From: Pseudomonadota bacterium
Lineage (GTDB): Bacteria; Bdellovibrionota; FAC87; UBA2466
Assembly: GCA_043767805.1 (NCBI GenBank)
Contig: JAYUGC010000009.1
Coordinates: forward strand, 1-18,632
Length of the DNA stretch: 18,632 nt
Direction of reading: 5' to 3'
This document shows positions 1 through 18,632 of this stretch, piece after piece. The notes under the pieces are model-generated. The model had not been told where the DNA came from, made no database searches, and saw only the letters and a list, made by a program, of their open reading frames with translations. The translations under genes were made by a program, and so were the position numbers. Every line of letters starts with the position of its first letter. The stretch's first letter is position 1.

Positions 1-260
1 TCTACCGAAAACAGGAAGAGGAGCTCTGGTGGTATTTTCTGAAGGCCGATAACACGGGCGTTCCCGACGGCTGGATTCCTTATTACCGGGTGCTCGGTAA
101 GGTCACCAAAGTAGGCCAGGCGCCTCGCCCCACGCGGGAGACCCGCCGCGACGACGTCCGCCGTCTGTGGCGCTCGCGCCTGGGATACGCCGTCTATGCG
201 TCACGCCTGACCGGCCGGCTTCTGCAACGTTCCCTCCTGGGACGCGCAATGCATGGGTAA
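1..260 (+). CDS. 5'-truncated S24/S26 (signal-peptidase-like) family peptidase, C-terminal part
   Basis: Not in the ORF track because the start lies outside the window. The frame beginning at nt 3 is open to TAA 258-260: YRKQEEELWWYFLKADNTGVPDGWIPYYRVLGKVTKVG...RAMHG*. 'FLKADN..PDGWIP...VLGKV' resembles the S26 box E 'KGDN...D......ilGkV'. The stop overlaps the next ATG (253) by 8 nt, suggesting an operon. Confidence 0.6.
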   Translation, partial: YRKQEEELWWYFLKADNTGVPDGWIPYYRVLGKVTKVGQAPRPTRETRRDDVRRLWRSRLGYAVYASRLTGRLLQRSLLGRAMHG

Positions 261-978
261 GCCACTCGTTTCCATCGTCGTGCCGACGTTCAACCGCGTG
301 CGCTTTCTCCGGCAAACGATCTTGTCGCTTCTCGCCGAGAAAGACGTCTCGACGGAAATCTGGGTGGTCGACGATGCGAGCGAAGACGACTCCATGGATT
401 CCATCCGCGACCTTCCAGTCGGCCAAATCCGTTTAGAGAAGAATCGAGGCGTCAGCCGCGCGCGGAACGAAGGGCTCAGTGTCTGCCAAGGCGAGCTCGT
501 CACTTTTTTCGATAGCGACGACCTTTTGGTTCCCGGCGGCATAAGCCGACGAGCGAAAGCTCTCCTCGCGCTTCCCTCGGCGGTTGGGGTCGGGGGCACG
601 CAAGCGGGCGATATCGACGCGGATGGGAATCTGCTCCCTCACCGCGTGCAACTCCCACCCAAGGAACCACTCACCTTGGATTTTTTTCGGCGGGGTGGAG
701 TTTACTGCCTGGGGCCTTGGCTTTATCTCTTTCGCCGGAAGGCTCTAGAGGAAGCAGGCGGCTTCGACGAGACTTTGCAGCTCGCTTCCGACAGTGATCT
801 CATGTTTCGTTTACTCGGCTCGGGCTACGTGCCGGTCCTTCCCATTCCCGTCATGCTCTACCGTTTTCACGAAGGAAATTTGAGCTTTTCCGATGCCGAG
901 CGCCCGGCCATGAGGCCACGTGCTTTAGCCGAAACTTACTTAGTGAATGCCCAGTACGGCATTCCCTTGCGGAGCTAG
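253..978 (+). CDS. Glycosyltransferase family 2 (GT-A fold)
   Basis: VSIVVPTFNR, EIWVVDDASED, NRGVSRARNEG, FFDSDD (DxD), GGFDETL..SDSDL, YRFHEGN: canonical GT2 motifs. Confidence 0.93.
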   Translation: MGKPLVSIVVPTFNRVRFLRQTILSLLAEKDVSTEIWVVDDASEDDSMDSIRDLPVGQIRLEKNRGVSRARNEGLSVCQGELVTFFDSDDLLVPGGISRRAKALLALPSAVGVGGTQAGDIDADGNLLPHRVQLPPKEPLTLDFFRRGGVYCLGPWLYLFRRKALEEAGGFDETLQLASDSDLMFRLLGSGYVPVLPIPVMLYRFHEGNLSFSDAERPAMRPRALAETYLVNAQYGIPLRS

Positions 979-980
979 CC

Positions 981-1703
981 ATGAAGCTGTCCATCGTCAT
1001 TCCCATTCACAATCAGGGCGCGTTTCTCTTCGCGGCTTGCGAGAGTCTCCTCAGAGAGCGGGCGGACACGGAAGTGATCGTCGTGGACGACGGATCCACC
1101 GAGGAGCTTTGGGACCTACTCGGCGAGCTCAACGTAAAATATTTCCGCCTGGGACGGCGGCAAGGCGTCGCGGCGGCTCGCAACTACGGGGGCCGGCAAG
1201 CGAGCGGTGAGTATCTGGGCTTTCTGGATGCCGACGATAAATCGGCCGCGGGTGGGCTTACTTGGCGAGTGGATTATCTGGACGCGCATCCTGAGTTCCG
1301 CGCGGTAGCGGGCGCCTTGGGCCAAATCATTGGCGAGGACGGCCTTCCTCTCCCGTCCTTTACGTTTCCTTGGGCGGCAACGCCGCTCCCACCGCTCCTC
1401 ACACGGGAATGGGCGCGCGCCCGGGGACCGATGCAAACCGCGGCTTGGTCGCTGACGTTCCGCCGTGATTTTTTCCTGGAGCTGGGCGGATTCGACGAGT
1501 CGTTACGTTTCGATCCAGATACGGATCTCCTCACGCGGGCCCTGGAGCAGACATCCATTCCGTACTTCGCGAAAGCGGTCGTCGATTACCGCGTGCACGC
1601 GGGAAACCACTCGCGTCTGGGCGGCATTCCCGAGTTCCGGCAAAAGCCTCACGTCCTGGCCGAAACGTGGCTTTCCTATCTCGCCGCCCAAGCTAGACAG
1701 TAG
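981..1703 (+). CDS. Glycosyltransferase family 2 (paralog of the upstream GT2)
   Basis: LSIVIPIHN, EVIVVDDGS, GVAAARNYG, FLDADD, GGFDESL..DTDL, YRVHAGN. Starts 2 nt after the upstream stop, with GGAG upstream. Confidence 0.93.
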   Translation: MKLSIVIPIHNQGAFLFAACESLLRERADTEVIVVDDGSTEELWDLLGELNVKYFRLGRRQGVAAARNYGGRQASGEYLGFLDADDKSAAGGLTWRVDYLDAHPEFRAVAGALGQIIGEDGLPLPSFTFPWAATPLPPLLTREWARARGPMQTAAWSLTFRRDFFLELGGFDESLRFDPDTDLLTRALEQTSIPYFAKAVVDYRVHAGNHSRLGGIPEFRQKPHVLAETWLSYLAAQARQ

Positions 1704-3429
1704 CGCGGGGCATTTCCACCATGCGGCCTTGGCCGTAGTGGAACATGAGCTCCAAAGGCTCGCCGGCCTCGAGATCTTGGATATTTTTAGGCGAGCGGTG
1801 CACGGGGAAGCGAAACTTCGCGAGGTATACGTCGTGCTGCAGTTTCTCGACGCCGGGAGGAAGGGTCTTATCCTCGTCTATAGTGGCGTTTCTTTCTCCG
1901 CCCCGCCGGCCCCGGTTTTTCGCCGACAGAGCCAGAAAGCGCACGTACTCCTGGAGCGCCGGCGGCTCTTCTCCAAGCTCCTGGGTGACGAACTCTGAAA
2001 CCCACTGCGCCTCTTGGCAGAGCTCAGCGACCGAGCTCGAAGGCAGAAAAAAATCGGCAAGCGACTTACCATGGCGCGCGAGAAACGCATCCATGCGCCG
2101 TAGGCCTTCCATTAGGCGCAAGCCCAGTTTCTCGCTCACGGTCTTCACACCGAAACGGAAGTGATCCCGGTAGTAGCCTCGAAGCCGCTTCGCCCATTCG
2201 TCCCCGCGCGCGAAATCTTGCTCGGAAAACTGCGGCGTGCGGAACACCCGATAGGGCGCTTCGGGCTCAAACACGATGCCGAGCTTATCTGCGTTCGAGA
2301 AATAACTTGAGCCCGGGAGAAGCGTGAGCCGATGGACGTTAACCAGATTGGCGTCGAGCTCCAGCGCGAAATCGAGAGACGCTTCGAAATCTTCGTACCG
2401 ATCCCCGGGCAATCCGTAAATGACGTCGATATTGAGCTCGAGGCGGGAAGTCAGGGAACGAAGGCGCTGAAAATTGGAACGAAACTTGTCCGCTTCGAAC
2501 CGGCGCCCCGCGATCTTCAAAGTCTCCGCATTGGTGGTTTGCAGGCCAAACGCGATGTAACCCGACTTGAGCCGCGCGAGCCGCTCGATGAGCTCTTCGT
2601 TGAGAAGCTCCGCCACCATCTCGAAATCAAAAATGCAGCTCCCGCCCTCTTCCTCCAAAATGATGTCGAGGATCTCGACGAGGCGCTTGCGATGCATATT
2701 GGAAACGGCGTCGGCGATCCAAACCCGGCGCACCGGAGATTTCATGATCGCCCGGAGCTCGGCTTTTACGCGCTCGAGCGGGAAGTAGCGAACTTGCCCC
2801 AGCACGCCCCAGGTGCAAAACCCACAGCGAAAGGGGCAGCCCCGGTTCGTTTCGAACGCCGCCAGATGGCTTCCCACGGTTTCCAAGTTCAGAGCGCCCG
2901 AGAGAAAGGGAGACGGGACTTCGCTCAAATCCGCGATGAGCGGCCGCTCGAGATTGGTGACGACTTCGCTGTCTTCCCGAAAGGAAATGCCGCTGACGGG
3001 CGATAGCGCCGCCTTGTTCCACCCCTGCTTGATCACTGAGAGAAACAGATCTCGAAAGGTGTGCTCGCCTTCGCCTCGAACGACCAGATCGAGCGCCGAA
3101 TGCCCGAGATAATGGGAAGCGCGGTGACTGACTTCGGGGCCGCCGGCGAAACATTTCTTCGCGGGGTCCAAGGCCTTTAGCCCGTTAATTACTTCGAGCA
3201 TTTTTGCCACGTTCCACACGTAGCAGGAGAAGCCCACGAAATCGGCGTCCTTCGCTTTTTGAATGAGCGTTTCGGCGTTGACGTCGACGTTCTCGTCGAT
3301 AACTTCCAAATCCAGGCCGTCGCGCAGCTCGGGTTCGTCGAGCCATACGGCCTTCATTAGGTAAGGCGCCAGAGCGACTCCCGCGCTTACCGGATTCAAA
3401 GAGACTAAAAGCACTTTGGGTTTTTTCAT
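1693..3429 (-). CDS. Cobalamin (B12)-binding radical SAM protein (class B methyltransferase-like)
   Basis: N-terminal B12-binding motifs DFVGFSCYVWN, AGGPEVS, VVRGEGE. Radical SAM motif ETNRGCPFRCGFC (CxxxCxxC), then GLQT and DVIYGLPG. ATGA overlap with the upstream radical SAM gene at 3426-3429. Confidence 0.95.
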   Translation of the reverse strand: MKKPKVLLVSLNPVSAGVALAPYLMKAVWLDEPELRDGLDLEVIDENVDVNAETLIQKAKDADFVGFSCYVWNVAKMLEVINGLKALDPAKKCFAGGPEVSHRASHYLGHSALDLVVRGEGEHTFRDLFLSVIKQGWNKAALSPVSGISFREDSEVVTNLERPLIADLSEVPSPFLSGALNLETVGSHLAAFETNRGCPFRCGFCTWGVLGQVRYFPLERVKAELRAIMKSPVRRVWIADAVSNMHRKRLVEILDIILEEEGGSCIFDFEMVAELLNEELIERLARLKSGYIAFGLQTTNAETLKIAGRRFEADKFRSNFQRLRSLTSRLELNIDVIYGLPGDRYEDFEASLDFALELDANLVNVHRLTLLPGSSYFSNADKLGIVFEPEAPYRVFRTPQFSEQDFARGDEWAKRLRGYYRDHFRFGVKTVSEKLGLRLMEGLRRMDAFLARHGKSLADFFLPSSSVAELCQEAQWVSEFVTQELGEEPPALQEYVRFLALSAKNRGRRGGERNATIDEDKTLPPGVEKLQHDVYLAKFRFPVHRSPKNIQDLEAGEPLELMFHYGQGRMVEMPRATV

Positions 3430-4445
3430 GGGTGGGGATCACCCGGCGGCCGGTAGAGACGGCACTGCTCGCAAACGACCTTGCCACTAGCCGGCGCACC
3501 CAGCGTCGGGACGAAACGGCTCCGAGCAAAGCGGTAGCTTTCCCCGTTCCAGATGTCGTCGAAACTTTGGGTGAGAAGATCGCCCATGACGGCCTCCTTC
3601 TTATTGGCCCAGCAACAAGGGGTAATTTTCCCCTCGGGGTTGATCACGCAGCTGTCAAAAAGGGCGCCGCACCGGCCTGGGGCGGGTGCCGGGCCTTCGG
3701 AATCCTTGTAGTACTCGCGGATGTCGGCGGCCTCCGAGGGGAGCCACTGCCGCTTCCAGCTTTCTCCGTCGCCTTCGACGGGAAAATCCACCCACTCGTA
3801 TCCCAGAAAAAGCTGCTTGCGTTCGAAGTCCACGCCCAGCTCGTCGGCAATCGCCTTCACCTTCGGGGCATCGGCCTCGTTCTTTTTGCTCACGATGAAG
3901 CCCACCGTGATGCGCGGCAAGGCCGACTCTAACTTCTGCTTCGTGGCCACGAGACTTCTCAAATTGGAAAGCACGAGCGCGAGATTCCCGCCTTTGCGAT
4001 GCTGCTCGTAGGTCTCCTGAGTCGCGCCGTCGACGGCGATACGCAAGTGATCGAGGCCCGAGGTGACGATGGCCTCGAAAAAGGCAGCGTCGCGAGTCAG
4101 GCTGAAGTTCGAGTGAATGGTGACCCGGATGCCGCGCGCGGTGGCAAGACGGATCATCTCGAAAATGTCGGGGTGCTGAAAGGACTCTCCAATGTTGAAG
4201 AGATTCAACCTCCGTACCGACGTCATTTTTTCCAGCACGCTCTGGAAAGTGGCGAGCGGCATCTTGCGCTTGAAATCGTTGGGAAGCCCCTGGCCAGTGG
4301 GGCAGAGCTCGCAGCTCAAATTACAGGCGCTCATCGGATCGAGGTAGAGCTGGGAGGGAAGCGGAATCCGCCCCGAAATGGCGTACTCCATCCAGGTCTT
4401 TTTTCCCATGCCTTCGGGAGAACGGAGGGACGTTGGTGCTTCCAT
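3426..4445 (-). CDS. Radical SAM protein with C-terminal SPASM/Twitch Fe-S domain
   Basis: CNLSCELC (CxxxCxxC), NIGES, IAVDGATQETY..RKGG. C-terminal CGALFDSCVINPEGKITPCC...MGDL..SFDDIWNG...CEQC. Confidence 0.93.
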   Translation of the reverse strand: MEAPTSLRSPEGMGKKTWMEYAISGRIPLPSQLYLDPMSACNLSCELCPTGQGLPNDFKRKMPLATFQSVLEKMTSVRRLNLFNIGESFQHPDIFEMIRLATARGIRVTIHSNFSLTRDAAFFEAIVTSGLDHLRIAVDGATQETYEQHRKGGNLALVLSNLRSLVATKQKLESALPRITVGFIVSKKNEADAPKVKAIADELGVDFERKQLFLGYEWVDFPVEGDGESWKRQWLPSEAADIREYYKDSEGPAPAPGRCGALFDSCVINPEGKITPCCWANKKEAVMGDLLTQSFDDIWNGESYRFARSRFVPTLGAPASGKVVCEQCRLYRPPGDPHP

Positions 4446-4468
4446 GATTGAGGATCTCTCGGGCTACA

Positions 4469-4497
4469 ACTAAAGCGGGGGTGATTTTCGCTGTCAA
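4469..4497 (-). promoter_or_regulatory. Putative sigma70 promoter for the two radical SAM genes
   Basis: Minus strand: perfect TTGACA (4497-4492), 17 nt spacer, weak -10 TTTAGT (4474-4469), about 24 nt upstream of ATG 4445. Confidence 0.35.
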
Positions 4498-4558
4498 CCG
4501 CTCCGGGTCTTCTATTGCGCCGCCAAAAGAGAAAGGAACGCGAACCAAGCAGGAAAGC

Positions 4559-4567
4559 TGTTACATT
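4559..4567 (+). promoter_or_regulatory. Putative extended -10 element
   Basis: TGtTACATT (TGn + TAnnnT), 12 nt upstream of ATG 4580; no SD sequence visible. Confidence 0.3.
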
Positions 4568-4579
4568 AGCGGCGTCACG

Positions 4580-5830
4580 ATGAACGCCAGACTCTTTAAT
4601 CGTCTTCGCGCCGGAATCGACGGCCTTTGCCACTGGCCCCTCGTTCGCCTGGCCGGCACGGATTGCTACTGGTGGGCCGCGTCCGCGGTGGCCCGCAAGC
4701 TTTACCGTTTCCCGGGCGTGCGTTCCGTGGCGCTCCGAGGCGGAATGGTCAGAGGGTGCCGGCCGGGGATTTCCGATTTGGATTTCACCGTCCTCCTGCA
4801 CGACGAAAGCTTTGAGACCGAAGTGACTCAGTCACGCGCGCTCATCGCCGAGTACCGAAGCTTGAAGCGATTCGTGCCGATGCTCGGAGAGCTGACGCTG
4901 ACCACGACCGGACGCTGGTCGCACTTTGAACGGCTGGCTCCCGGCCCGGTCCTTGGCTACCGCGATCAGCTGCGGTTTCACAACGGACGATGGACGAAGG
5001 CCCGGTGCGAGGCCGTTCCCCACGCGGCGGCGCGTTTCGCCCTCGCTCTCGATCACTTTCGTCTGGCTCTCCACGCCGCCCAGCTCGACGATAGCCGCTA
5101 CGGCCGCATCGTCGCCGCGAAGGAAATGCGAAAAGCGGGGAAGTTTGCGGGAGACGAAACGGCGGGCGAGGATCCGATCCTGGTTTTTCTCGCGCTCGAT
5201 CGTTTGGCCACCGAAGCCGTTCAAGACCGGTTTTTTACTCCCGAGCTGACTTGGCCCGAAGCCCCCGTTTTAAGGCGAGCGGCCCACGCGGTTCTCGGAG
5301 ACTGGCAGATTGCCACTTTGCTAAAACGGCCCGGTTTTTCCGAAGGAGTGGCAGCGGGCGATGCCCCCTTCTCCCTCGCCGCCTCTCCCCACCACGTGCG
5401 AACGTGGATGCCCGCGCTGCTTCGCCGGGAAAAGGGCGAGTCGCGCCTTCCCGTATATCCGCTTTCTCCCGCCATGAGCGAGTGCCGCGCGAGAGGATGG
5501 GCGGGTTGGTGGCCCACCGAGCCGCTGGCCCAATTTCCTAACTCCGGCGCGCCCTCTCCTGAGCGAGGCGGGCATCTGCTTCGCAGCCTGGTTGAGAGAC
5601 TCTGTCACGACAGCATTTGCCTCGTGCCCGGGCGCCTGACCCTCGCCGCCGACCGCGAGAGCGATCTATGGGAGACGCGTTTTTCCGTCGAGACAAATGC
5701 GCTTAGGCAAGCGTTGCGCCTGGATCCGGTCGCCAAGCAATCCCAGGATCGCCTCAGTCACGGCATCACCTTGGCGCGCTCCGCCATGGAGGCTGTTGCC
5801 CTGGCCCGGGATCGATCTTGGCTCAACTAA
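4580..5830 (+). CDS. Nucleotidyltransferase (DNA pol-beta superfamily) domain protein with uncharacterised C-terminal region
   Basis: VRSVALRGGMVRGCRPGISDLDFTVLL fits the hG[GS]xxRG...SDhD nucleotidyltransferase signature. ATG 4580 is preferred over TTG 4448, which would leave no room for the divergent promoters. Confidence 0.7.
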   Translation: MNARLFNRLRAGIDGLCHWPLVRLAGTDCYWWAASAVARKLYRFPGVRSVALRGGMVRGCRPGISDLDFTVLLHDESFETEVTQSRALIAEYRSLKRFVPMLGELTLTTTGRWSHFERLAPGPVLGYRDQLRFHNGRWTKARCEAVPHAAARFALALDHFRLALHAAQLDDSRYGRIVAAKEMRKAGKFAGDETAGEDPILVFLALDRLATEAVQDRFFTPELTWPEAPVLRRAAHAVLGDWQIATLLKRPGFSEGVAAGDAPFSLAASPHHVRTWMPALLRREKGESRLPVYPLSPAMSECRARGWAGWWPTEPLAQFPNSGAPSPERGGHLLRSLVERLCHDSICLVPGRLTLAADRESDLWETRFSVETNALRQALRLDPVAKQSQDRLSHGITLARSAMEAVALARDRSWLN

Positions 5831-5927
5831 CAACGCTGAGCACCAGAAAGCGACTCGATTTTCTCTTGGCGGGGCTCAAACCCTTCGGTTATCCTTCCGG
5901 AAACTCTAACGAATTAACCACTCGCGG

Positions 5928-6326
5928 ATGAAACCCATGGACGAAGAGCGCTACCGAACCAGTGAGTCTGCCGTCTACCGCGAGGTAGGAAACGAGCTCG
6001 TCGTCATTCAAGTCGAGACAGGACACTTCTACTACTTCAACAAGACGACCAAACAGTTTCTCGATTTCTTCCGCCATCCGGCGAAGCTCGACGATTTTCT
6101 TTCGCGCGCGGGACTAAGCGACGACGCCGAGCTCACCTACCTCAAAACGTTTTTGTGCACCCTGAAAGACAAGCGCATCTTGGAAGCGACCGAAGCGACG
6201 GGGGTCATTCCCTCGGGAGGCGAAGTGAGCTCATACGACCGGCCCACGCTCATCCGCGAAGGCGAGAAGAAGCTCGACGAGATCGCGTCCGAAATTGCCG
6301 TGCTTACCACGGGCACTTTCCTCTAA
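5928..6326 (+). CDS. PqqD-family RiPP recognition element (RRE) with a C-terminal leader/core-like extension
   Basis: Residues ~8-87 (YREVGNELVVIQVETGHFYYFNKTTKQFLDFF...LKTFLCTLKDKRILE) fit the PqqD pattern of 3 beta strands plus 3 helices. They are followed by a G/S/T linker and YDRPTLIREG...VLTTGTFL. The start could alternatively be ATG 5937. Confidence 0.85.
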   Translation: MKPMDEERYRTSESAVYREVGNELVVIQVETGHFYYFNKTTKQFLDFFRHPAKLDDFLSRAGLSDDAELTYLKTFLCTLKDKRILEATEATGVIPSGGEVSSYDRPTLIREGEKKLDEIASEIAVLTTGTFL

Positions 6327-6442
6327 AAAGCCCCGCCCCCGGCCTAAACACCTCTTTCGTGTAGTAACCCCACGGGTTACGCCATTCGCTTCCGCGCTGT
6401 TCACTTCTCAGACGAATTTCACAATTCGGCAGGCTTCCCGAT

Positions 6443-6459
6443 CTGGAACGGACCCTGCA
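6443..6459 (+). promoter_or_regulatory. Putative sigma54 (-24/-12) promoter
   Basis: CTGGAACGGACCCTGCA: GG-N10-GC spacing, close to the consensus YTGGCACG-N4-TTGCW, 53 nt upstream of ATG 6513. Confidence 0.5.
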
Positions 6460-6512
6460 GTAGCAGAGCTTAAGCAAAGCACACTGGACACGCGACTTTG
6501 AGAGAACAACGA

Positions 6513-7658
6513 ATGGCCTTACGACGCACAATTTGCGCACTCGCCTTAGGAATCGCTTTCACGATTCCCGTGCTTTCGGCGCGAGCCGATGAGGATCGCC
6601 GCACCCAGCAAGGAGACAAGGCCAGCAAGGAATTGAAGAAGAAGACCGAAGAGCAGCTGCTGCCTTCGCAGAAGATACATGAAGGACTTAAAGAAGAGCA
6701 TCTAAAGAAGGCCGAAGAGGCGCGCCAGAATAAAGACGAAGGAACGGCTCAAAGAGAAGAACAGATGGCCATGATGGAGCAGATGAAGGTTCAACAGCTC
6801 CAGCAGCAAATCCAATCGAACAACGAGTCGGCTGACAAGAACGCGCAAGGCGCCGCAAAGCTCACCGAGACGGACGCGAACGACAAACAAAAATCTTATG
6901 ATCCGAGCGTCGTTTCCGTGCGAAAAGGCGAAGTGCCTTCAGCTCCCGGACAAAAGCCTTCCGGCGGCGGTAGCCCTCCGGGGACCGAGCCCGCGGCTCC
7001 TCCCGCGCAGCTTGCGGACCTCAGCACTTTTTCTCGTGAGGCCTTGCCCCAGCCGGCAGTCGTCGCTCCGAAGGCCGAAGCGCCGCCCCCTGCCGCGAGA
7101 CCGCAGACCATCGATCATCTTTTGGGAGACTTGGAAAAGGTAGACCGCGCGGCCGTCGTCTATGAGGACGGCGCGAAGAACGCGAATGGCGGCCAAAGCG
7201 GGGCGACGCCGCAATACCGTTTGCTCACTTCCGCTTCGGGTCAGGCGACGACCCCGACCGCGACGGTTTCTGGCGGTAGCTCAGACGGCGGAGCCGGAGG
7301 GGCGAATTCCGATATTTGGAAAGCGGAAGCGGAGAAACCCACCGGTGGCCGAGCGGTCGCAACCAGAGGCCCGGCTTCCGTCGGCGGCTCGACGTCCGCG
7401 CTGGAAGGCGAAAAGGCTTTGGGCGCGTTGGACAAGGATTTCTTCGAGCCCTGCCCGGACGCGAAGGAATGGAAAAAGATGTCGAAGGAAGCGCGCGGAG
7501 GCGTGCGCGACTCTTGCCAAAAATTAGCAAAGCAGTGCCAGGCCAAGCCCGCCGACAAAAAAGCTCCGAAGGGCACGAAACCCAAAGAGCTCGCCGCCGA
7601 GTGCAAAGAATGGCTCGGCCAAAAATCCAAGACCGAAAAGAAAACCGCGGCGAAGTAA
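6513..7658 (+). CDS. Secreted hypothetical protein: coiled-coil, Pro/Gly/Ser/Thr-rich disordered region, RGPAS motif, 4-Cys basic C-terminal domain
   Basis: Sec signal peptide MALRRTICALALGIAFTIPVLSARA ending in A-x-A; K/E/Q-rich helix. ATG 6513 with GAGAGA upstream is preferred to TTG 6498. Confidence 0.8.
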   Translation: MALRRTICALALGIAFTIPVLSARADEDRRTQQGDKASKELKKKTEEQLLPSQKIHEGLKEEHLKKAEEARQNKDEGTAQREEQMAMMEQMKVQQLQQQIQSNNESADKNAQGAAKLTETDANDKQKSYDPSVVSVRKGEVPSAPGQKPSGGGSPPGTEPAAPPAQLADLSTFSREALPQPAVVAPKAEAPPPAARPQTIDHLLGDLEKVDRAAVVYEDGAKNANGGQSGATPQYRLLTSASGQATTPTATVSGGSSDGGAGGANSDIWKAEAEKPTGGRAVATRGPASVGGSTSALEGEKALGALDKDFFEPCPDAKEWKKMSKEARGGVRDSCQKLAKQCQAKPADKKAPKGTKPKELAAECKEWLGQKSKTEKKTAAK

Positions 7659-7731: not shown

Positions 7732-9069
7732 TTAGCGAATGTGGAGTTCCGCGTCGAGCTCTTGGATGCGATCCATGATCTGATCGTCGGACAAGCCTTC
7801 CGTGCCGTTCTCAAAGCGCGCGAGCTCCGCCGTCGTGGGAACGCGGTTCATGACGAGACTCGGCTGAAACGATCCGGTCGACTGAGGCGTGTGGCCGGCC
7901 ATGTCGTTCGTCTTCCAGATGGAGTAATCGCGGATTTCGCCGAGCGCGACGAAGCCGTCCTTCATGCCGTCCACGTAGCCGTCGGAATGCCCGATAAGAG
8001 CCTTCCACAAAGCGTGACCGAAAGCGCTGCCCGCGCTGCCGTTCGGGCCATTCGGCTCCTCGGGATCCGTGCCGGGGCCGGTCGACGATTCTTCGGAGGG
8101 CTTGCTCGAAGCCAAGACCATGAGAGTGCGGCCCTGGGCTTGCCAGTCCTGCCAATCGGCCTTCTTCTTATCGAAGGAGCTGACCAAATTGCCCGAGTAG
8201 CAAGCCATCATGAAGACGACCACTTCGCTCGCGGGCATGGAAAGCGCGTTGTCCCGCACTTCGTCGTAGCTCACGCCGAACTGAAGACCGGTGTGAGAGC
8301 CGTGACCGCTCGAGTACTGCACGTACATGTCGTCGCGGGTGATGACCTTCTTCAAGTCTTGCCACTTTTGACGGAGCGCCGAAGCGTTGGAGCCGATGAT
8401 CTTGGTTCCGAGGTAGTTTCCGCCGAGGTCTTTGGTGAAGATGTCGTGCGTGTGATTGATGTCGTACTTCACTTCGTTGCCCATCATGCCGGAGAGGGCA
8501 TCGCCGAAGCCGATGTAGTATTTTTTGCCGACGTAGCCCACGCCCGTAATTGAGCGCGAGTCAGGTCCCACCGGCTGCACGCGGAGCGCGAGCAAGAACT
8601 CTTTCGCCGTGGCGCTCGCCGCGGGAGCGGAGTCCGATTTCGCCCAGCCGTAGTACCGATTTCCCCGGTACTCCATGGTGAAGGCTTTTACGTACACTGC
8701 GGAAGCCGAGCCCGCCGCCTGGTAGCGGTACTCGAGAATGTCCCACTTGAACATGCCATGCGGCTCCCCCTTCATGTCGGAGGTGACGACAGCCTTCGCA
8801 TCGAGCTGCGATTTCAAATCGAAACTGCCCGCGGGTTTCACGCGAAAGTTCAAGGTGTCCGATCCCTTGGTCAGCGCGACGAGCAAAGTCTGATCGCTTC
8901 TCGCGTCTTGCGCAAAGGCCCAGCCAGTGGGAAGCGCGAGACTCAAAGCCTCCATGCCGTAAAGACCCGAACGCGTGGGGCCGCTTTTGCGGCGCCCTTC
9001 CGAAGCGGCGACGGCAGGCAAAGCCAGAAGACACAAGCCCAGACCGATCCAACCGAAGTGACGATTCAT
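7732..9069 (-). CDS. Secreted caspase-fold (clan CD, C13/C14-like) cysteine peptidase with an additional N-terminal domain
   Basis: Signal peptide (LALPAVAA). Catalytic His motif YVQYSSGHG and Cys motif VVVFMMACYSG, then VLASS.P.EES, GSAFGHAL, DGFVALGE..Y and TPQ as in bacterial caspase-like domains. SD AAGGA. Confidence 0.8.
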   Translation of the reverse strand: MNRHFGWIGLGLCLLALPAVAASEGRRKSGPTRSGLYGMEALSLALPTGWAFAQDARSDQTLLVALTKGSDTLNFRVKPAGSFDLKSQLDAKAVVTSDMKGEPHGMFKWDILEYRYQAAGSASAVYVKAFTMEYRGNRYYGWAKSDSAPAASATAKEFLLALRVQPVGPDSRSITGVGYVGKKYYIGFGDALSGMMGNEVKYDINHTHDIFTKDLGGNYLGTKIIGSNASALRQKWQDLKKVITRDDMYVQYSSGHGSHTGLQFGVSYDEVRDNALSMPASEVVVFMMACYSGNLVSSFDKKKADWQDWQAQGRTLMVLASSKPSEESSTGPGTDPEEPNGPNGSAGSAFGHALWKALIGHSDGYVDGMKDGFVALGEIRDYSIWKTNDMAGHTPQSTGSFQPSLVMNRVPTTAELARFENGTEGLSDDQIMDRIQELDAELHIR

Positions 9070-9256: not shown

Positions 9257-10951
9257 ATGCCCCAAATTTTAACCACCTGGATCCGGCGGACTTGGCCCTT
9301 CGCCTTTGTCTGTGCGTGCGCGGCGTCGCCGCCGCGCGGTCTCGATACTCCCCCTACTCAAGCGGGAGTTCTGCCGGGCCTAGTCGAAGCGTTGAAGCTT
9401 CAGCCGCCCGATGCGGGGCTCCCCGATCCGGTGTCCGCCGAAGACACTCCCCTCTTTCGCCAAGCCGCGCAGGTCGACCGCTTGTTAAAAGGCCTCGCGA
9501 GCCCCGAAGAAACGAAAGCGCTGACGCAAGAGTGCCGCAAGAAGCGGGTAAAAAATCCGTTCTGCCCCATCGTTCGTGACGCCAAACGTCTAAAGTCTTT
9601 TTTCGAAGAGACCGAGCGGCCGTACAAGTTCAGAGAGCCTACGCCGAAAGAGCCTATGGCTCCCCAGATCGTCGACGGCAACGTCGTCAATTACGCGAAG
9701 TTAAAAAAAGCCGACGTCGACAATCTTCTGCCCGGCTTCAAGACGCTTACTCCCGAAGCTCTGACCATCGTCAAAGCGAAAGCGCTTTCCTCGGCGGGCT
9801 GTCCGGACAACGCGGCTATCGCGCTCGCGGCCACTCTGGAAGACGGCATGCCGAGCAAGGTGGATCCCAAGGAAGTCGCCGCGCTCTACGCGAAAGTCGG
9901 TGGCTGCTTTCCGAAACGCTCGGCGAACCGCGAGCACTTTCTCACGCGCGCGGGCCTTCTCTATTATTATTCCGCCGACTACGCGTCGGCGGCCACCGTG
10001 CTCGCCCGCGCCGAAGCTCAAGATGCTCTCGTGGGCCGCCCGCTCTATTGGCTCTACCGTTCTCGCAAAGCGCTCGGCGAGACGGAGAAGGCCGACCAGA
10101 CTTTGAAAAAACTCTTTCGGCAGCATCCGCTCTCGTTCCACGCGCTTATGGCCGCGCTGGAGAGCGGACAAGCGCCCGAAACGGTTTTTCTTCATCCACC
10201 GACTCCCGTGAAAAAGCGATCGAAGCGCGTCCCTTGGGCCAATGCCTGGTTCGAAGACATCGAGACCATGAAGCGGTTCGGCTTCTTCGCCTCCTCCGAG
10301 CGGCTCACGGTGTGGGTCTCGGCGAAAGCCAAACGCCTCGAGCCGGAAGTGCGTCTCTATCTCGCCGAGTTCGGAAGCCCGTTTTTCAAAGTCACCCGGC
10401 TCACGGAAATTTTCATCCGCCGTCGTCCGCTCATGTCGACCGAGTCGTTCAAGCTCGCCTACCCGCTCGCCTACTGGCCGCTCATGGAGAGAAACGGCAT
10501 GGATCTCGATCCGCTGCTGCTGCTCGCCGTGGGCAGAAAAGAGAGCAAGTTCGATCCTAAGGCGGTCTCTCCCGCGAACGCGCAAGGGCTTCTCCAGATT
10601 CACCCCGACACGGGTAAGCGCCTGACGGACGGCGCCGCTCTCGATCTCACGAACCCTTACGTGAATATCACGGTCGGCGCGCACTACATCACCGAGCTTT
10701 TAAAAAGACTCGATGGCCGTTTGCCTTGGGCCCTCGCCGCGTACAACGCGGGCGAAGAGGCTGCTCACTCCTGGATGGTGCGCTTTCCGTCGCCGGATCC
10801 GATTCTCCAAATCGATCTCATCACGTTCCGCGAGACTCGCAACTACGTGGGCTTCGTGCTCTCGAACTACTACTGGTACCGGCGGCTCTACCAGCCGGAG
10901 AAGGGCCAGCCCCTCGATTTTCTGGTTCCGCCGGAAGTCGCGCGTAAATAA
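9257..10951 (+). CDS. Soluble lytic transglycosylase (Slt70-like, helical/TPR N-terminus), possibly a lipoprotein
   Basis: SLT motifs RKESKFDPKAVSPANAQGLLQI (catalytic Glu), ALAAYNAG and ETRNYV. TPR-like helices upstream; a possible lipobox in FVCAC. Confidence 0.92.
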   Translation: MPQILTTWIRRTWPFAFVCACAASPPRGLDTPPTQAGVLPGLVEALKLQPPDAGLPDPVSAEDTPLFRQAAQVDRLLKGLASPEETKALTQECRKKRVKNPFCPIVRDAKRLKSFFEETERPYKFREPTPKEPMAPQIVDGNVVNYAKLKKADVDNLLPGFKTLTPEALTIVKAKALSSAGCPDNAAIALAATLEDGMPSKVDPKEVAALYAKVGGCFPKRSANREHFLTRAGLLYYYSADYASAATVLARAEAQDALVGRPLYWLYRSRKALGETEKADQTLKKLFRQHPLSFHALMAALESGQAPETVFLHPPTPVKKRSKRVPWANAWFEDIETMKRFGFFASSERLTVWVSAKAKRLEPEVRLYLAEFGSPFFKVTRLTEIFIRRRPLMSTESFKLAYPLAYWPLMERNGMDLDPLLLLAVGRKESKFDPKAVSPANAQGLLQIHPDTGKRLTDGAALDLTNPYVNITVGAHYITELLKRLDGRLPWALAAYNAGEEAAHSWMVRFPSPDPILQIDLITFRETRNYVGFVLSNYYWYRRLYQPEKGQPLDFLVPPEVARK

Positions 10952-11651: not shown

Positions 11652-13115
11652 CTTGGGATACCGGCCTAAGTGCGCGTCCCGCCGTTCCGCCGACCGAAAA
11701 CGAGCGCGAGCCGCTTCGCAGTCCCCACGTCTGGCCATAAGTAACCCCAGCTGGTACTCGAGACTCGCGGCGACTTTCGGATCCGAAGCAAAACGATGCC
11801 CTTCGTTCCGCCAAAGCTCCGCGTAGCTTTCGGCGTCTCCCTTTTGAAAACGATAAGCGAACTCGGTGAGCCACACGCGGGGGCTGTCGGGAAGACGTAG
11901 GTGCGCTTGCGCGAGAAAGGCCTCTCCGTCCTCGTGGAACTGAGGGCCCAGATCCAGATAAGTCAGCGCGAGATTGCTCCAATTGAGCCCTACCTCCGCA
12001 TGGTGCTTCACCTCGGCGGAGGCGTGGGCGACCCGAGACTCGAGCTCGCTCAAACGACGCTGGAGAGGAAAAAGGAGAACTAAGGCATGCGCGGCGAGCA
12101 ACCACGGAAACCCCTTTGGGAGAACCGCGACGGAAAGCGCGAGCGCCACCGCCAGACAGGCCGCGGGGAAATAACCGTATCGTTCGGCACCGAGATTGAG
12201 ATTGGGAATGCTTGCATAAAGCACGAGAGAGAAAAGAACGACGGCGAACCACGGCGCCGCGAGCGACTTTCGCCGAGCGGCAACCCACAAGCCCCCGCCT
12301 AACGCGAGGCCCGTAAGCACCATGGTTACCGCCCAGACGAAATTGGGCGCGGCCACCCAACGATCTAAGAGGGAAGTCGTCGTGAGCCCAAGACCCGAAA
12401 AAGTTTTCACCGCCCATTCGGCCCACGCGATGGGCGCCAGAAAGAGCTGCTTTGTACCGAGCACGCTGAAGCCCAAGACTCCGTCATAAGAGAAAGCCGA
12501 GCCGCGATCGGACAGAAGCAGAAAAGCGACCACAATCGCCCAAGGAATCGCGTAAGTGAGCGCGCGCTTACGTCCCGTCGCCGCGAAAACCAAGGCGGGG
12601 GCTAATCCCACGAACACTTCCTTGGAAAGCGCGGCCGCGCCCACCGCGAGAAAAGCCAAGAGCCAACGCGAAGTGGACGCCAGGATTACGGCCAGCAAAG
12701 TAAAACACGTGCCGAGGACGTCCATGCGGAACCAGGCAACGGAAAGTGCCTCGGCGTGCAACGGGAGCCACGCAAACCAAAGCGCGCCGAGTACCGCCGT
12801 GAAAAACGAAACGCGCGCGGAGAGCCACCAAAATAGAAGCGCCGCGGTCAGCGCGTGTAAAGTCAGCGACAACCACCGCTGACCCTCTACCCGTCCGCCC
12901 CCGGCCACTTGCCCCAAGGCAAGAGCGACATTGGAGACGGGCTTGGAGGGTTTCAAGGAAAAAAGAAACGCGTCCGCGCTGCTACCCACCGCGGCGAGCG
13001 CGGGGTTGTGCTCCACGAGCTGAAGATCGTCGAAAAGGTATTGCCCATGACGCAGTGGGAGCCACGGCACCACGGCGAGAAGAGCCACGGTTACAAATCC
13101 ACGAAGGCGCATCAC
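11637..13115 (-). CDS. TMTC-like GT-C membrane glycosyltransferase (protein O-mannosyltransferase-like) with C-terminal TPRs
   Basis: YLFDDLQLVEHNP (DD..NP loop), LHAL, PLHAEALS...R.DVL, LSKE and AERYGYFP. About 10 TM segments; TPR-like tail (WSNLALTY, YQLGLLMARRGD.EAA..RF). Start is GTG 13115 or ATG 13112. Confidence 0.8.
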   Translation of the reverse strand: MMRLRGFVTVALLAVVPWLPLRHGQYLFDDLQLVEHNPALAAVGSSADAFLFSLKPSKPVSNVALALGQVAGGGRVEGQRWLSLTLHALTAALLFWWLSARVSFFTAVLGALWFAWLPLHAEALSVAWFRMDVLGTCFTLLAVILASTSRWLLAFLAVGAAALSKEVFVGLAPALVFAATGRKRALTYAIPWAIVVAFLLLSDRGSAFSYDGVLGFSVLGTKQLFLAPIAWAEWAVKTFSGLGLTTTSLLDRWVAAPNFVWAVTMVLTGLALGGGLWVAARRKSLAAPWFAVVLFSLVLYASIPNLNLGAERYGYFPAACLAVALALSVAVLPKGFPWLLAAHALVLLFPLQRRLSELESRVAHASAEVKHHAEVGLNWSNLALTYLDLGPQFHEDGEAFLAQAHLRLPDSPRVWLTEFAYRFQKGDAESYAELWRNEGHRFASDPKVAASLEYQLGLLMARRGDCEAARARFRSAERRDAHLGRYPKPFCG

Positions 13116-13166
13116 TCTGGAACTCTATCGGTTGTGCGCAGCCCGGGGCAATGTAGAATCGTCTCC
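13116..13166. promoter_or_regulatory. Overlapping divergent sigma70 promoters, both probably leaderless
   Basis: Plus strand: TTGTGC(13132-37)-N16-TAGAAT(13154-59)-7 nt-ATG 13167. Minus strand: TTGCCC(13151-46)-N18-TAGAGT(13127-22)-6 nt-GTG 13115. Confidence 0.55.
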
Positions 13167-14723
13167 ATGCCACGGCGCTTTGCTCAATGGGCTCTTCTCG
13201 GTTTGGCGGTCGGAGCGTGTTTTCTCGCCTGGTCTCTCTCCGTCGATTATTTCGACTCCTACGACATTCTTTCCAATGCCCGCCGTCTGGTGGGCAACGG
13301 CTACGGCGAGTACGTGCGCGGCCGCGGCCTTTTGAGCGGCCCGCTCTTCGCGGGCTTCGCGATCGTCGAACGTTGGTTTCCGAGCTTTCCGTTTTTTCGC
13401 GCGGCTCATCTGTGGTCGCTCACTCTGACTCTCACTCTGGTGCTCGCCTTTCTTACGATCGCGCGCCGGATAAGCCCGCGTCACGCGTGGGCGGGAGCGC
13501 TCGCTCTCGCCTTGAACCCGCTCGTCGTTCACTACGGCGTCTTTGCCAAAGAAGACATTCCCGCGACGCTTTTCACGGTGCTTGGCTTTGCGGAAATCCT
13601 GCGCCGAGGCGTCGGCTCGGCGCCCCTGTGGTTCGCGCTCGCGGGGCTCATACGAGCCAATCTTTTTCCCGCCATCGGCGTCACCGTCTTTCTTTTTCGC
13701 TGGGGACAGAAAGAGAGAAAAGGCGCCGTTCGTCTCTACGGCGGCTGGGTTCTTGCCACTCTCAGCATCGCCACGATCGTATACGCGTGGGCGGGACTCG
13801 GATCGGTCACCACGTTCGTAAGCGATCTGCTGACTCAATGGAAAGACAACCAGCAAGCGTATCAACCGCCCTCGGTCGCGCTCGGGCTCATCGGGGTCGC
13901 CCTGCCCGTCGTGGTGATCGCCGCTGGAGCGGTCGGCGCGCTGAGAGGCGCCGACGCGCCGACAAAGCTCGCGACTCTTTGGGCCGCGGTTTTCATTGGC
14001 CTGCAAACCTTTATCGTGTCCGGCAAGGAGACTCGCTATTTTCTTCCCGCGCTGCCGGCGCTCTACTTGCTGGCGGTCGCGGGTTTCGAGCGCTTGCCCA
14101 AGGTAATCGCCCTCGCCTGGTGGCTGGTGCTACCCGCCGGCCTTTTGGAAATGGCGCGCTTTCAAGATCCGATCTTTCGCGAGCCGAAAGCGGAACGGGT
14201 CTCGAAAGCGGCGGCGTCTCTTTCCCGCACGGGACGGGTCGTTTGGGTGGGCCCGTTTTATCCGCTTCGCCCCGCGCAACACGTGCTCCACGAAGACGAT
14301 GATTATTTTTCTCTCTTTCACCTTTGGAGAAACGGCGTCGCGTTTCATCTCAAGCACGAAGTGCCCGCCATCGCGTTTCCACAGAGCGAGCTTTTCAACG
14401 GCGAGACCATGCCGCGCGGGTTGGGTCAGTATCTCGAAACGGGAGACGCCATTCTTTGGAATCGCGAGCCGCGCTCCTACGCCACGCGCGACTTGCCCCC
14501 CACGCTCGCGCCACTCGTCATCGCCAGAGTCGAGATCTTCGAACGTAAGGACCGCCTACCTTCTCCCGGTCCTTACGAGGCCTACTCCGCCACCGCCGAA
14601 GGCTTTCGCTCCTTGGGCTGGCACAACGAAAGCGAACCCCCAGGCTCGCCATGGTGGCTCCAGCTACAGGGTGTAAGTGAACAGCCACTCAACAAAACCG
14701 AGTACAATCCGTATACACTCTAA
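13167..14723 (+). CDS. GT-C superfamily (ArnT/PMT_2-like) membrane glycosyltransferase with C-terminal soluble domain
   Basis: TM1 followed by the acidic loop YFDSYD; then LALNP, KEDIP and KETRYFLPALP; about 10 TM segments. ATG 13167 is chosen because TTG 12909 overlaps the divergent gene. Confidence 0.75.
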   Translation: MPRRFAQWALLGLAVGACFLAWSLSVDYFDSYDILSNARRLVGNGYGEYVRGRGLLSGPLFAGFAIVERWFPSFPFFRAAHLWSLTLTLTLVLAFLTIARRISPRHAWAGALALALNPLVVHYGVFAKEDIPATLFTVLGFAEILRRGVGSAPLWFALAGLIRANLFPAIGVTVFLFRWGQKERKGAVRLYGGWVLATLSIATIVYAWAGLGSVTTFVSDLLTQWKDNQQAYQPPSVALGLIGVALPVVVIAAGAVGALRGADAPTKLATLWAAVFIGLQTFIVSGKETRYFLPALPALYLLAVAGFERLPKVIALAWWLVLPAGLLEMARFQDPIFREPKAERVSKAAASLSRTGRVVWVGPFYPLRPAQHVLHEDDDYFSLFHLWRNGVAFHLKHEVPAIAFPQSELFNGETMPRGLGQYLETGDAILWNREPRSYATRDLPPTLAPLVIARVEIFERKDRLPSPGPYEAYSATAEGFRSLGWHNESEPPGSPWWLQLQGVSEQPLNKTEYNPYTL

Positions 14724-16544: not shown

Positions 16545-16664
16545 AACACGCAGAGCGAGCGCGTCCTGCGAAAGTGCGGCTTCGTTTACGAAGACAGTAT
16601 GAAAAACTACTATCTAAAAGACGGAAACCTTCTTGGCGCGCGGATGTTCGCACGCTTTCCCTAG
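16545..16664 (+). pseudogene. C-terminal remnant of a RimJ/RimL-type GNAT acetyltransferase
   Basis: NTQSERVLRKCGFVYEDSMKNYYLKDGNLLGARMFAR fits the GNAT motif N.aS.RVLeK.GF..EG.lr....kdG...D...ya. The upstream in-frame sequence is not GNAT-like and is too short for a whole domain. Confidence 0.65.
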
Positions 16665-18015: not shown

Positions 18016-18632
18016 TCACTCCTTGAAGTGAAACTTGATGACGACCTTTTGCGCTTTCGTGCAGTCGTACTTGGCACAATATTGCTCGCCGGACATTTCC
18101 TTGCCGTCTTTCGTGCCTTCCGCCCGCAGATAGCCCTGCCCCGTGACCTTCGCCATGGGGAGGAGCTCGTTCTGGTACTTGTACTTGAAGCGCTTCGGGT
18201 TGAAGGCGAAATCGAAAATGGATTTAGCGCGCTGGTAGCTCAGATCCATGTTGTAGTCGACCGCTTTGCGCGCTTCGGGACGCAGATCCTTCGGATTCAC
18301 GTAGGCGCCCTTATAGGTCGGAGAGGCGAAGCCCACTATCTCCACGGAAGCGATCCGTTGGGCGAGCTTCTCGTCTTCCAAGATGCTTTTCGCATAAGCC
18401 GGCATCGCGTTTTGCAAAACGTGGCGCATGCCGTCTTTCAGGCCCGATTTTCCGGTATCGAAGTACTCTTCGCCGAACTGGATCTGCACTTCGCCGGTCT
18501 TCACGTTGATGTCCGCCTTGATGCCGGAGCGGGCGAAGTTCTCTTTGATCTTCTTGGCGAGCGCGGTGCGATCCATTTCCCTCTGGCGAAGCGCCGCGAG
18601 CTCGCGTTGCATGTCCTGGTTCGTATCGGAGA
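18016..18632 (-). CDS. 5'-truncated OmpA/MotB-like peptidoglycan-binding domain protein with preceding coiled-coil
   Basis: YFDTGKSGLK, VEIVGFAS, YNMDLSYQRAKSI, VTGQGY and QKVVIKF fit the OmpA_C-like pattern. The frame remains open to the window end. Confidence 0.8.
   Translation of the reverse strand, partial: SDTNQDMQRELAALRQREMDRTALAKKIKENFARSGIKADINVKTGEVQIQFGEEYFDTGKSGLKDGMRHVLQNAMPAYAKSILEDEKLAQRIASVEIVGFASPTYKGAYVNPKDLRPEARKAVDYNMDLSYQRAKSIFDFAFNPKRFKYKYQNELLPMAKVTGQGYLRAEGTKDGKEMSGEQYCAKYDCTKAQKVVIKFHFKE

Follow-up and report, generated by a model that had tools for sequence, protein, structure and literature searches.

Do the seven tightly packed genes at the left end of this contig form one peptide-modifying pathway, or does the conserved system comprise only some of them? 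The DNA analyzed here (the window) is the entire 18,632-bp contig C9 (JAYUGC010000009.1) of a 204-contig genome, GCA_043767805.1, which the GTDB places in the Bdellovibrionota, and the genes in question occupy positions 1..6326. An earlier note, made from the sequence alone, read all seven as a candidate cluster for a peptide synthesized ribosomally and modified post-translationally (RiPP). Our analysis favors a narrower answer, centered on a 129-residue protein that couples a RiPP recognition element (RRE) to a peptide-like tail. With somewhat better than even confidence, we regard the conserved system as a RiPP-type peptide-maturation cluster that resembles the linear polyphosphorylated peptide (LPP) clusters in its logic and has the 129-residue protein as its substrate. 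The conserved machine would comprise this RRE-leader-core fusion, a Sec11-like peptidase, a nucleotidyltransferase, and glycosyltransferases of family GT2. The comparisons below support the note's interpretation in part.

Gene layout and left flank

The open reading frame (ORF) coordinates agree with the note's description of packed genes in three units (three rightward, two leftward, two rightward) with overlaps of 4 to 11 nt. The features are as follows.

3..260 (+), C-terminal 85 residues of a Sec11/SipW-type (S26B) signal-peptidase-like protease
253..978 (+), GT2 glycosyltransferase a (GT2a), 241 aa; Pfam PF00535, 93.8 bits
981..1703 (+), GT2 glycosyltransferase b (GT2b), 240 aa, tandem paralog of GT2a; PF00535, 85.3 bits
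1693..3429 (-), B12-binding radical S-adenosylmethionine (SAM) enzyme, 578 aa; Pfam B12-binding and Radical_SAM
3426..4445 (-), radical SAM/SPASM enzyme, 339 aa, without an N-terminal RRE; Pfam SPASM and Radical_SAM
4580..5830 (+), nucleotidyltransferase-like enzyme of predicted polymerase beta (pol-beta) fold, 416 aa, uncurated family
5937..6326 (+), RRE-tail protein, 129 aa, divided into the next three features
5937..6191 (+), RRE domain (PqqD/lasso-B1-like), residues 1-85; AlphaFold2 (AF2), Foldseek, and profiles
6234..6287 (+), leader-like motif, residues 100-117, Y-D-R-P-T-L-I-R-E-G-E-K-K-L-D-E-I-A
6288..6326 (+), variable C-terminal end S-E-I-A-V-L-T-T-G-T-F-L and stop, putative core peptide
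C14:146-3 (-), peptidase N-terminus, residues 1-48
C14, upstream of the peptidase, DUF2064 gene, TIGR04282-like (105 bits; cut-off 134)
C14, likewise upstream of the peptidase, conserved 82-aa ORF

Neighboring ORFs overlap by 8 nt (3-260/253-978), lie 2 nt apart before position 981, overlap convergently by 11 nt (1703/1693), and overlap by 4 nt at 3429/3426. Alternative starts exist for the nucleotidyltransferase ORF (4448 or 4580) and for the RRE ORF (5928 or 5937). The ATG at 4580, which leaves a divergent spacer of 134 nt, is favored by the same-genus ortholog, and the gap upstream of the RRE gene is 97 nt. A scan of positions 1-7000 turned up no sigma-70-like promoter, and terminator-like sites there did not exceed their frequency in shuffles.

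Pfam recognizes four of the seven ORFs, namely the two GT2 enzymes and the two radical SAM enzymes. The ORFs at 3-260, 4580-5830, and 5937-6326 match nothing in Pfam or NCBIfam, even at E<=10, and were identified through folds, profiles, or relatives. The suggestion that the cluster continues leftward proved correct once the upstream flank was retrieved. Searching the proteins of the same-genus genome G001 against the genome under study identified the start of contig C14, in reversed orientation, as the left neighbor of C9 at a distance of about 2 codons. C14 supplies the peptidase N-terminus, the DUF2064 gene, and the 82-aa ORF. Because divergent, unrelated flavodoxin-domain and AsmA genes lie beyond these, in the same order as in G001, the cluster reaches only three genes further left. 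As the note had stated, the window holds no lasso cyclase, YcaO, or LanM; the 17 window ORFs and the C14 flank gave no Pfam or NCBIfam match to a lasso cyclase (Asn-synthetase-like) or a transglutaminase-like B2 protease.

An RRE protein with a conserved leader-like block and a variable end

The ORF at 5937-6326 encodes a lasso-B1/PqqD-type RRE protein. Its AF2 model, with a predicted local distance difference test (pLDDT) score of 78, places three helices after the strands and adds a further strand at residues 105-108 (local pLDDT about 85). The best Foldseek matches are all RRE-containing: TbiB1 (template modeling score 0.70), TigE, PbtF, MccB, NisB, and TruD. TbiB1 is also the best sequence match of the family profile in the PDB (E 3.7e-5, residues 5-85), and the search output labels this entry "TbiB1 in complex with the TbiA leader peptide." TbiB1 binds its YxxPxL leader as an added strand. 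The 129-aa protein itself has no direct match to PF05402.

Searching the profile against 1.84 billion representatives returned 143 proteins at E<=1e-3, of which 84 reach E<=1e-10. A PF05402 check covered 37 of the 54 weakest matches, and all 31 stand-alone proteins among these (85-109 aa) are PF05402 PqqD proteins above the gathering score. The longer weak matches are RREs fused to radical SAM/SPASM domains (P0135, P0136, and P0097), to an HPr-kinase domain, or to GT9. The approximately 90 stronger matches, all 100-160 aa long, share one architecture: an RRE, a variable linker, a conserved block, and a short end. The block reads Y-x-R-P-x-[FL]-[LI]-R-x-G-E-K-x-L-D-E-[IV]-x across the family. 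Among 91 representatives, the mean information content is high in the block (1.98 bits per column) and the RRE (1.84) and falls to 0.73 in the end and 0.67 in the linker.

Within the block, Y100-x-x-P103-x-L105 fits [Y/W]xxPx[L/V/I/F/A], the motif bound by lasso and LPP RREs according to the LPP paper (PMC13381572), and it sits C-terminal to the RRE rather than at an N-terminus. The strict form [YW]xxPx[LVIFA] occurs in 50 of the 91 representatives versus 3.8 in shuffles. The ends that follow the block fall into four main classes and a few further types:

F-x-X-P, 36 of 91 (X is Cys in 21, Tyr in 10, Ser in 4, and Glu in 1)
F-[LF]-Y, 9 of 91
S-E-I-A-V-L-T-T-G-T-F-L (window type), 11 of 91
ISGPNTSxSG, 6 of 91

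The F-x-X-P and F-[LF]-Y classes together count 45 ends, of which 30 have A, S, or T just before the final Phe; for F-L-[C/Y/S]-P ends, cutting behind this small residue would put the nucleophile at +3, as in LPP. Judged from this sequence architecture, the 129-aa protein resembles a precursor to which its own RRE has been joined. The YxxP motif in cis, combined with the C-terminal end classes, provides the strongest evidence that the tail may be a substrate; the note had noticed neither feature.

In the genome under study, the block is confined to the two RRE-tail genes, on C9 and C53, apart from one unrelated match; no free-standing precursor with the same motif was found there. The second RRE-tail gene, C53:8387-8749 (-) (locus L010), encodes a protein 41% identical to the first and ends in F-L-C-P. 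Near it lie GT2 genes, a peptidase-methyltransferase fusion, an ATP-binding cassette (ABC) ATPase gene with a partner ORF, and a nucleotidyltransferase homolog. This genome thus has two systems of different tail class.

A Tat- or Sec-type signal was considered for the tail and rejected: between R-P-x-F-L-R and the putative cut site lie charged residues (G-E-K-x-L-D-E-I), and a hydrophobic core is missing. Separately, six proteins of 131-153 aa with weak RRE-profile matches (P0122, P0127, P0131, P0145, P0147, and P0148) carry a different tail motif, "..LLLDP(I/V)HEV..(E/T)GWP..", and may represent another RRE-with-tail family.

Distribution and neighborhood of the RRE-tail gene

To describe the genomic setting of the RRE-tail gene, we sampled 401 genomes of the phylum and found it in 13, all but one weak match belonging to a single order. 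By family, it is present in 8 of 33 genomes of one (f1) and 3 of 4 of another (f2). Protein homology searches of the collection returned seven matches for the RRE-tail protein and four for the nucleotidyltransferase, and a locus search with 13 closer sequences recovered five genome loci already in the sample plus one metagenome locus (2.9 kb). We clustered the ORFs within 8 kb at 13 loci, which include the window and the second copy on C53. The recurrent neighbors are listed below.

GT2: 11 of 13 loci (12 with L018 by Pfam)
Peptidase: 10 of 13
Nucleotidyltransferase: 9 of 13, the usual upstream neighbor of the RRE-tail gene
Class I SAM methyltransferase: 6 of 13, fused to the peptidase in 3
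CcmA/DrrA-like ABC ATPase: 6 of 13
ABC ATPase partner ORF, without a family match: 5 of 13
GT4: 4 of 13
PMT_2 glycosyltransferase of the GT-C type: 4 of 13
Weak HprK-related-kinase/ScmC-like protein: 3 of 13

Overlapping genes in the order GT2, nucleotidyltransferase, RRE-tail are seen again at L009, L011, L013, and L017. The methyltransferase, which is not found in the window, has the daptide methyltransferase NF041820 as its best NCBIfam match (89 bits versus a cut-off of 175).

The peptidase, nucleotidyltransferase, and GT2 enzymes

The note's assignment of an S26-like peptidase holds and can be refined. The G001 ortholog is full-length (123 aa) and matches Pfam S24 weakly (E 8e-4). A profile built from nine members of the family finds human SEC11A (E 9.2e-10) and SEC11C (2e-8), and the SEC11A alignment pairs "LGpSqwP" with the serine motif, "CHRV" with the histidine motif, and "KGDaN..D" with the aspartate region. 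The NCBIfam model of archaeal-type signal peptidase I, TIGR02228, matches at E 2.5e-8 (33.9 bits, under the cut-off of 51.85). The protein begins at the catalytic motif and lacks an N-terminal membrane anchor, which argues for a Sec11/SipW-type enzyme. H47, D66, and D72 are invariant in the family; the nucleophile position is Ser in eight relatives and Cys in G001 and the genome under study ("LGECLAP"), a swap that retains a nucleophile in this genus.

The protein encoded at 4580-5830 is modeled with middling support as having a nucleotidyltransferase fold of the pol-beta superfamily, with a DxD motif and a third carboxylate. Eight family members share R-G-G..P-G-x-S-D-x-D-F and a downstream L-G-E, and S65, D66, D68, E104, and K185 are invariant among them. 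With a pLDDT of 68, the AF2 model of the enzyme is moderately good. The top Foldseek rows are ANT, AadA, LinB, and 2rff (aminoglycoside, lincosamide, and minimal nucleotidyltransferases), at weak E values of 0.06-0.5, and the VIA comparison of residues 20-130 gave Z scores of 8.1 for 2rff, 7.8 for MNT, 7.8 for Pol X, 7.6 for LinB, and 7.2 for ANT(4'). The closest named Atlas clusters carry PF01909, and the profile of the nucleotidyltransferase found no match among PDB sequences. An hhalign comparison with PF14907 was insignificant (probability 0.2%), its single aligned stretch covering the R-G-G...D-L-D region. We presume that the nucleoside triphosphate (NTP) transferases of the PsmN/LppN type are PF14907 proteins; the PsmN paper itself speaks of an uncharacterized NTP transferase. 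The fold matches, with the invariant D66, D68, and E104, and the TbiB1 profile and Foldseek matches agree with the note's identification of a nucleotidyltransferase beside an RRE fusion. At L011:7823-8976 (+), the homolog of this enzyme is represented by two ORFs (157 and 212 aa), reflecting either a frameshift or an assembly error in a metagenome-assembled genome.

Both GT2 enzymes, like both radical SAM enzymes, fall outside the curated NCBIfam equivalogs. The best NCBIfam match of GT2a is MftF (90 bits versus a cut-off of 280), and a role of the GT2 enzymes as polyprenyl-phosphate sugar synthases, which was also considered, gained no backing from NCBIfam, where no such family ranked high.

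The radical SAM pair is best read as a lineage-specific insertion

Both radical SAM genes are absent from all 12 other RRE-tail loci by tblastn and ORF clustering, so the seven genes do not form one co-conserved unit. The 12 remaining window genes that were queried, running from the peptidase to g14 (14299-14676), are all colinear in G001, which lacks both radical SAM genes; there, GT2b overlaps the nucleotidyltransferase gene directly, and the tail is of the window type. Since a GT2 gene also abuts the nucleotidyltransferase gene in four other loci, the radical SAM pair is best read as a lineage-specific, inverted two-gene insertion between GT2b and the nucleotidyltransferase gene. No notable repeats flank the insertion, and the GC content of the pair, overall and at third codon positions (GC3), equals that of its neighbors, with no compositional shift.

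The relatives of the two enzymes were traced separately. No ortholog of the B12 enzyme was found in 40 relatives (best identity, 34%), and a paralog with 39% identity on C133 adjoins a GDPD gene. Its best NCBIfam match is the KedN5 subfamily (170 bits versus 700). The PoyB/PoyC-type C-methylation that the note had suggested is not borne out: the RiPP C-methyltransferase model TIGR03975 scores 74 bits versus 282, and the enzyme does not co-occur with the RRE-tail gene at any of the 12 other loci. The SPASM enzyme, whose CxxxCxxC motif starts at about residue 41, fares no better as a RiPP maturase, since its scores are far under the cut-offs (tungsten-cofactor maturase, 103 versus 380; MftC, 53 versus 265; PqqE, 34 versus 381; StsB, 44 versus 625) and its RRE partner is not conserved. 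Its best homologs in 400 genomes of the phylum reach 38% and 34% identity; the first adjoins YdjC and GT4 genes, and the second adjoins methyltransferase, PglD-like, and NeuB genes. Neither an RRE nor a B12 enzyme was present in the fetched flanks of seven SPASM-homolog loci. A 27% identical SPASM-like paralog on C43 sits in a glycosyltransferase-rich locus. The note had named homologs in polysaccharide loci without an RRE as evidence against its proposal, and the SPASM homologs partly fit that description for the radical SAM component. Its RiPP assignment stands for the RRE with its peptide tail, the signal-peptidase-like protease, the GT2 enzymes, and the nucleotidyltransferase, whereas the radical SAM pair drops out of the core. 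We treat the pair as accessory: it could tailor the 12-residue core or an attached sugar, between which the evidence does not decide.

Comparison with known systems

The LPP clusters offer the closest parallel. The comparison below is one of described features. LPP clusters (lppA-K-B-S-D-N) were described from Bacillota in Nat Commun 2026, and their authors call LPPs restricted to that phylum (PMC13381572). The leader peptidase LppS is SipW-like (Ser29, His68, and Asp93) and requires the discrete RRE LppB; the clusters also encode an HprK-like kinase, an MsbA-like exporter, and an uncharacterized NTP transferase without a deletion phenotype (PMC13381572). The leader reads YxxPxVLxHQxIxFETxxS, cleavage follows Thr-1, and core Ser+3 is polyphosphorylated (PMC13381572). 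The clusters are embedded in glycosyltransferase-rich capsule loci, and no final product was identified (PMC13381572).

The conserved genes of the window share with LPP an archaeal/SipW-type Ser-His-Asp leader peptidase (with Cys for Ser in the window genus), a lasso-B1-like RRE, a [Y/W]xxP leader motif, a variable C-terminus, a nucleotidyltransferase-fold neighbor, a glycosyltransferase-rich setting, and the absence of a lasso cyclase. An HprK-like kinase is shared in part, with weak matches in three of the 13 related loci. The systems differ in that the RRE is fused to the precursor here, whereas LppB is discrete and "fusion" in the paper refers to laboratory constructs. The putative core has 2-15 residues here versus 45 in LPP. 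The window has neither a kinase nor an exporter, and its nucleotidyltransferase belongs to a family other than PF14907. GT2 pairs and DUF2064 are found here and a methyltransferase in relatives, and the phylum is Bdellovibrionota rather than Bacillota. The note did not recognize its gene combination as a described class, yet without the radical SAM enzymes the combination is not wholly undescribed: a signal-peptidase-like protease, RRE, NTP transferase (with an HprK kinase), and exporter in glycosyltransferase-rich loci define LPP (PMC13381572).

Lasso peptide tailoring offers a second point of comparison. PsmN, a nucleotidyltransferase-fold enzyme, is required for hexose addition to a RiPP C-terminus (PMC6993621). 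The paeninodin and pseudomycoidin systems (HprK-like kinase, PsmN, and B1 RRE) have in common with the window a D-x-D nucleotidyltransferase-fold enzyme beside an RRE, and in them the nucleotidyltransferase is linked to glycosylation of the peptide C-terminus. The window differs in lacking a cyclase and a B2 protease, in using another nucleotidyltransferase family, and in having recognizable GT2 genes. TbiB1 (PDB 5v1u and 5v1v), the best match in both sequence and fold, has 90 residues and stands apart from its leader, which it binds in trans.

Mycofactocin and pyrroloquinoline quinone (PQQ) biosynthesis likewise combine a PqqD-type RRE with a SPASM radical SAM enzyme that lacks its own RRE and, in mycofactocin, with a GT2 (MftF). 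They differ in that the window scores lie far under the cut-offs, the radical SAM enzyme is not co-conserved with the RRE, and no MftD or MftE equivalents are present. By analogy, a product of the mycofactocin/PQQ type, derived from the extreme C-terminal residues of a peptide, is conceivable. Finally, the daptide methyltransferase NF041820 is the best, sub-cut-off match of the methyltransferase that adjoins or is fused with the peptidase in 6 of the 13 loci.

Proposed mechanism and alternative explanations

From the folds and families, fusion architecture, conservation, neighborhoods, and radical SAM presence or absence computed here, we infer binding in cis, a cleavage site, a modified residue, and a chemistry as follows. 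The YxxPxL motif would fold back on its own RRE as an extra beta-strand. The self-bound RRE-leader unit would then dock on the Sec11/SipW-type peptidase and on the adjacently encoded nucleotidyltransferase-fold enzyme. The latter, with the two GT2 enzymes, would decorate the C-terminal core at a nucleophilic side chain, which may be Ser/Thr in this genus; most relatives would offer the Cys, Tyr, or Ser at position +3 of F-L-x-P instead. The peptidase would cut after the small residue ending L-D-E-I-[A/T/S] and free a very short modified peptide. A bolder version, which we offer as speculation, casts the protein as a self-presenting scaffold whose RRE grips its own YxxP leader and whose stub, nucleotidylated or phospho-glycosylated on its nucleophile by the nucleotidyltransferase and GT2 enzymes, is clipped by a cytoplasmic Cys-His Sec11-like protease, with C-methylation or a crosslink added by the radical SAM pair. 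It is similarly improbable that the product of such a scaffold is a 4-residue F-L-[C/Y/S]-P peptide in most relatives and a 12-residue peptide in this genus. Nor would we give much weight to an end product that, by analogy with mycofactocin or pearlin, is a tiny peptide-derived glyco- or nucleotidyl metabolite.

Several observations weigh against a peptide-maturation cluster of this kind. The case for the motif contacting the RRE in cis comes from a single AF2 monomer model. The evidence for the nucleotidyltransferase fold is middling (Z about 8, Foldseek E>0.05) and thus not decisive alone. PF14907 has no match in C9 at E<=1, and three true PF14907 genes lie elsewhere in the genome. Pfam and NCBIfam reveal no kinase, exporter, or transporter in the window. 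Because Cys, Tyr, and Ser are all missing from position +3 of the window-type end, the LPP Ser+3 parallel is not directly transferable. L016 has no partner gene within 8 kb, and the nucleotidyltransferase is absent from four loci. The sample of 13 loci is small and narrow, coming from one order of one phylum and from related genomes that are not independent. Lastly, GT2, GT4, GT-C, ABC-2 transporter, and methyltransferase genes are also the ordinary set of a glycan locus.

We weighed three other explanations. The note's original proposal, that all seven genes serve one pathway in which the B12 enzyme C-methylates the tail, the SPASM enzyme crosslinks or epimerizes it, glycosylation and/or nucleotidylation follow, and the peptidase releases the product, appears unlikely but is the most credible of the three. 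The radical SAM pair lies inside the cluster with 4- and 11-nt overlaps and matches its neighbors in GC and GC3. PqqE and MftC rely on a discrete RRE, and the SPASM enzyme of the window, having no RRE of its own, would need one as well. The family profile also matches the RRE-radical SAM/SPASM fusions P0135, P0136, and P0097, and a PqqD gene on C134 abuts a SPASM radical SAM gene in the company of PF14907 and kinase-like genes. However, neither radical SAM gene is found at the 12 other RRE-tail loci, G001 has the same tail type without them, neither enzyme reaches the cut-off of a curated RiPP maturase, and the closest SPASM homologs occur in sugar contexts, as does the C43 paralog in its glycosyltransferase-rich locus.

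Those same sugar contexts bear on a more doubtful explanation, in which the locus builds a cell-surface glycan or glycoconjugate, the RRE-tail protein is an adaptor or regulator whose pseudo-leader autoinhibits the RRE groove, and the radical SAM enzymes modify a sugar or sugar nucleotide. The GT2, GT4, PMT_2 (GT-C), ABC-2-type ATPase, methyltransferase, and DUF2064/TIGR04282-like neighbors would all be at home there, as would SPASM homologs beside NeuB, PglD-like, YdjC, and GT4 genes, and the capsule setting of the LPP clusters, with no final product identified, is compatible with it (PMC13381572). Yet discrete C-terminal end classes after a conserved motif are unexpected of a purely regulatory tail, and a Sec11-like protease with intact catalytic residues, which accompanies the RRE-tail gene at 10 of 13 loci and in three of them is fused to a daptide-like methyltransferase, fits poorly. 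A last explanation, which we consider very improbable, takes the tail for an accidental or degenerate extension carried by an ordinary discrete PqqD protein among loose neighbors without a common function. Three of the seven proteins are unrecognized by Pfam and NCBIfam, and L016 is an orphan locus, as this explanation would have it; against it, 84 representatives at E<=1e-10 conserve the tail motif as strongly as the RRE, and the order GT2, nucleotidyltransferase, RRE-tail recurs at four loci.

If the peptide-maturation cluster that we prefer is real, placing the RRE, leader motif, and core on one polypeptide would constitute a different route of substrate delivery. In the RiPP systems that we found in print, the RRE resides on an enzyme or stands alone and the leader is bound in trans; a search of the literature, Supplementary Data 1/2 of PMC13381572 excluded, found neither a natural RRE-precursor fusion nor this gene set in Bdellovibrionota. 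The succession of an RRE, then YxxP, then a short variable end would provide a handle for genome mining, and the logic of a SipW-like peptidase, RRE, and NTP transferase would extend from Bacillota to Bdellovibrionota. The data also hint at a second, uncurated family of RRE-linked nucleotidyltransferases. For annotation, the locus advises caution: radical SAM genes within a cluster are no proof of a common pathway before co-conservation is checked.

Other loci of the genome and other genes of the window

Matches to TIGR04352 (HprK-related) elsewhere in the genome are weak and lie on C71, C182, and C134. On C71 (L077:3412-8878), a GT2, a PF14907 nucleotidyltransferase, an HPr-kinase-C-like protein, an 86-aa ORF without a family, and an APH-type kinase are encoded together, near a sulfotransferase-like gene and a DegT aminotransferase gene. 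This set resembles lasso-style tailoring without a cyclase. The operon on C134 (L078:3972-7705, -) encodes a P-loop kinase-like protein (weak HprK/PEPCK), a 90-aa PqqD, a SPASM radical SAM enzyme, a 184-aa unknown protein, and a PF14907 nucleotidyltransferase. With two GT4 genes and an SLBB export-like gene adjoining, it forms a further, separate RRE/SPASM/nucleotidyltransferase cassette among glycan genes.

Several genes elsewhere in the window are of separate interest. The ORFs at 16661-18004 (-) and 18016-18612 (-) encode a MotA/MotB-like pair with PADLOC matches to Zorya (ZorA, 28 bits; ZorB, 82 bits), and ZorC/ZorD were not seen before the contig end. The 445-aa protein encoded at 7732-9069 (-), which is 75% identical in G001, has a weak NCBIfam match to the EACC1-associated caspase domain (E 1.2e-6). 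Its gene adjoins those of a secreted low-complexity protein rich in Lys, Glu, Ala, and Pro (6498-7658) and an SLT lytic transglycosylase (9257-10951). The ORF at 13187-14302 (+) has a GC3 of 0.49 versus 0.65-0.80 in its neighbors, and the overlapping 604-aa ORF at 12909-14723 (+) may be the real gene in its place.

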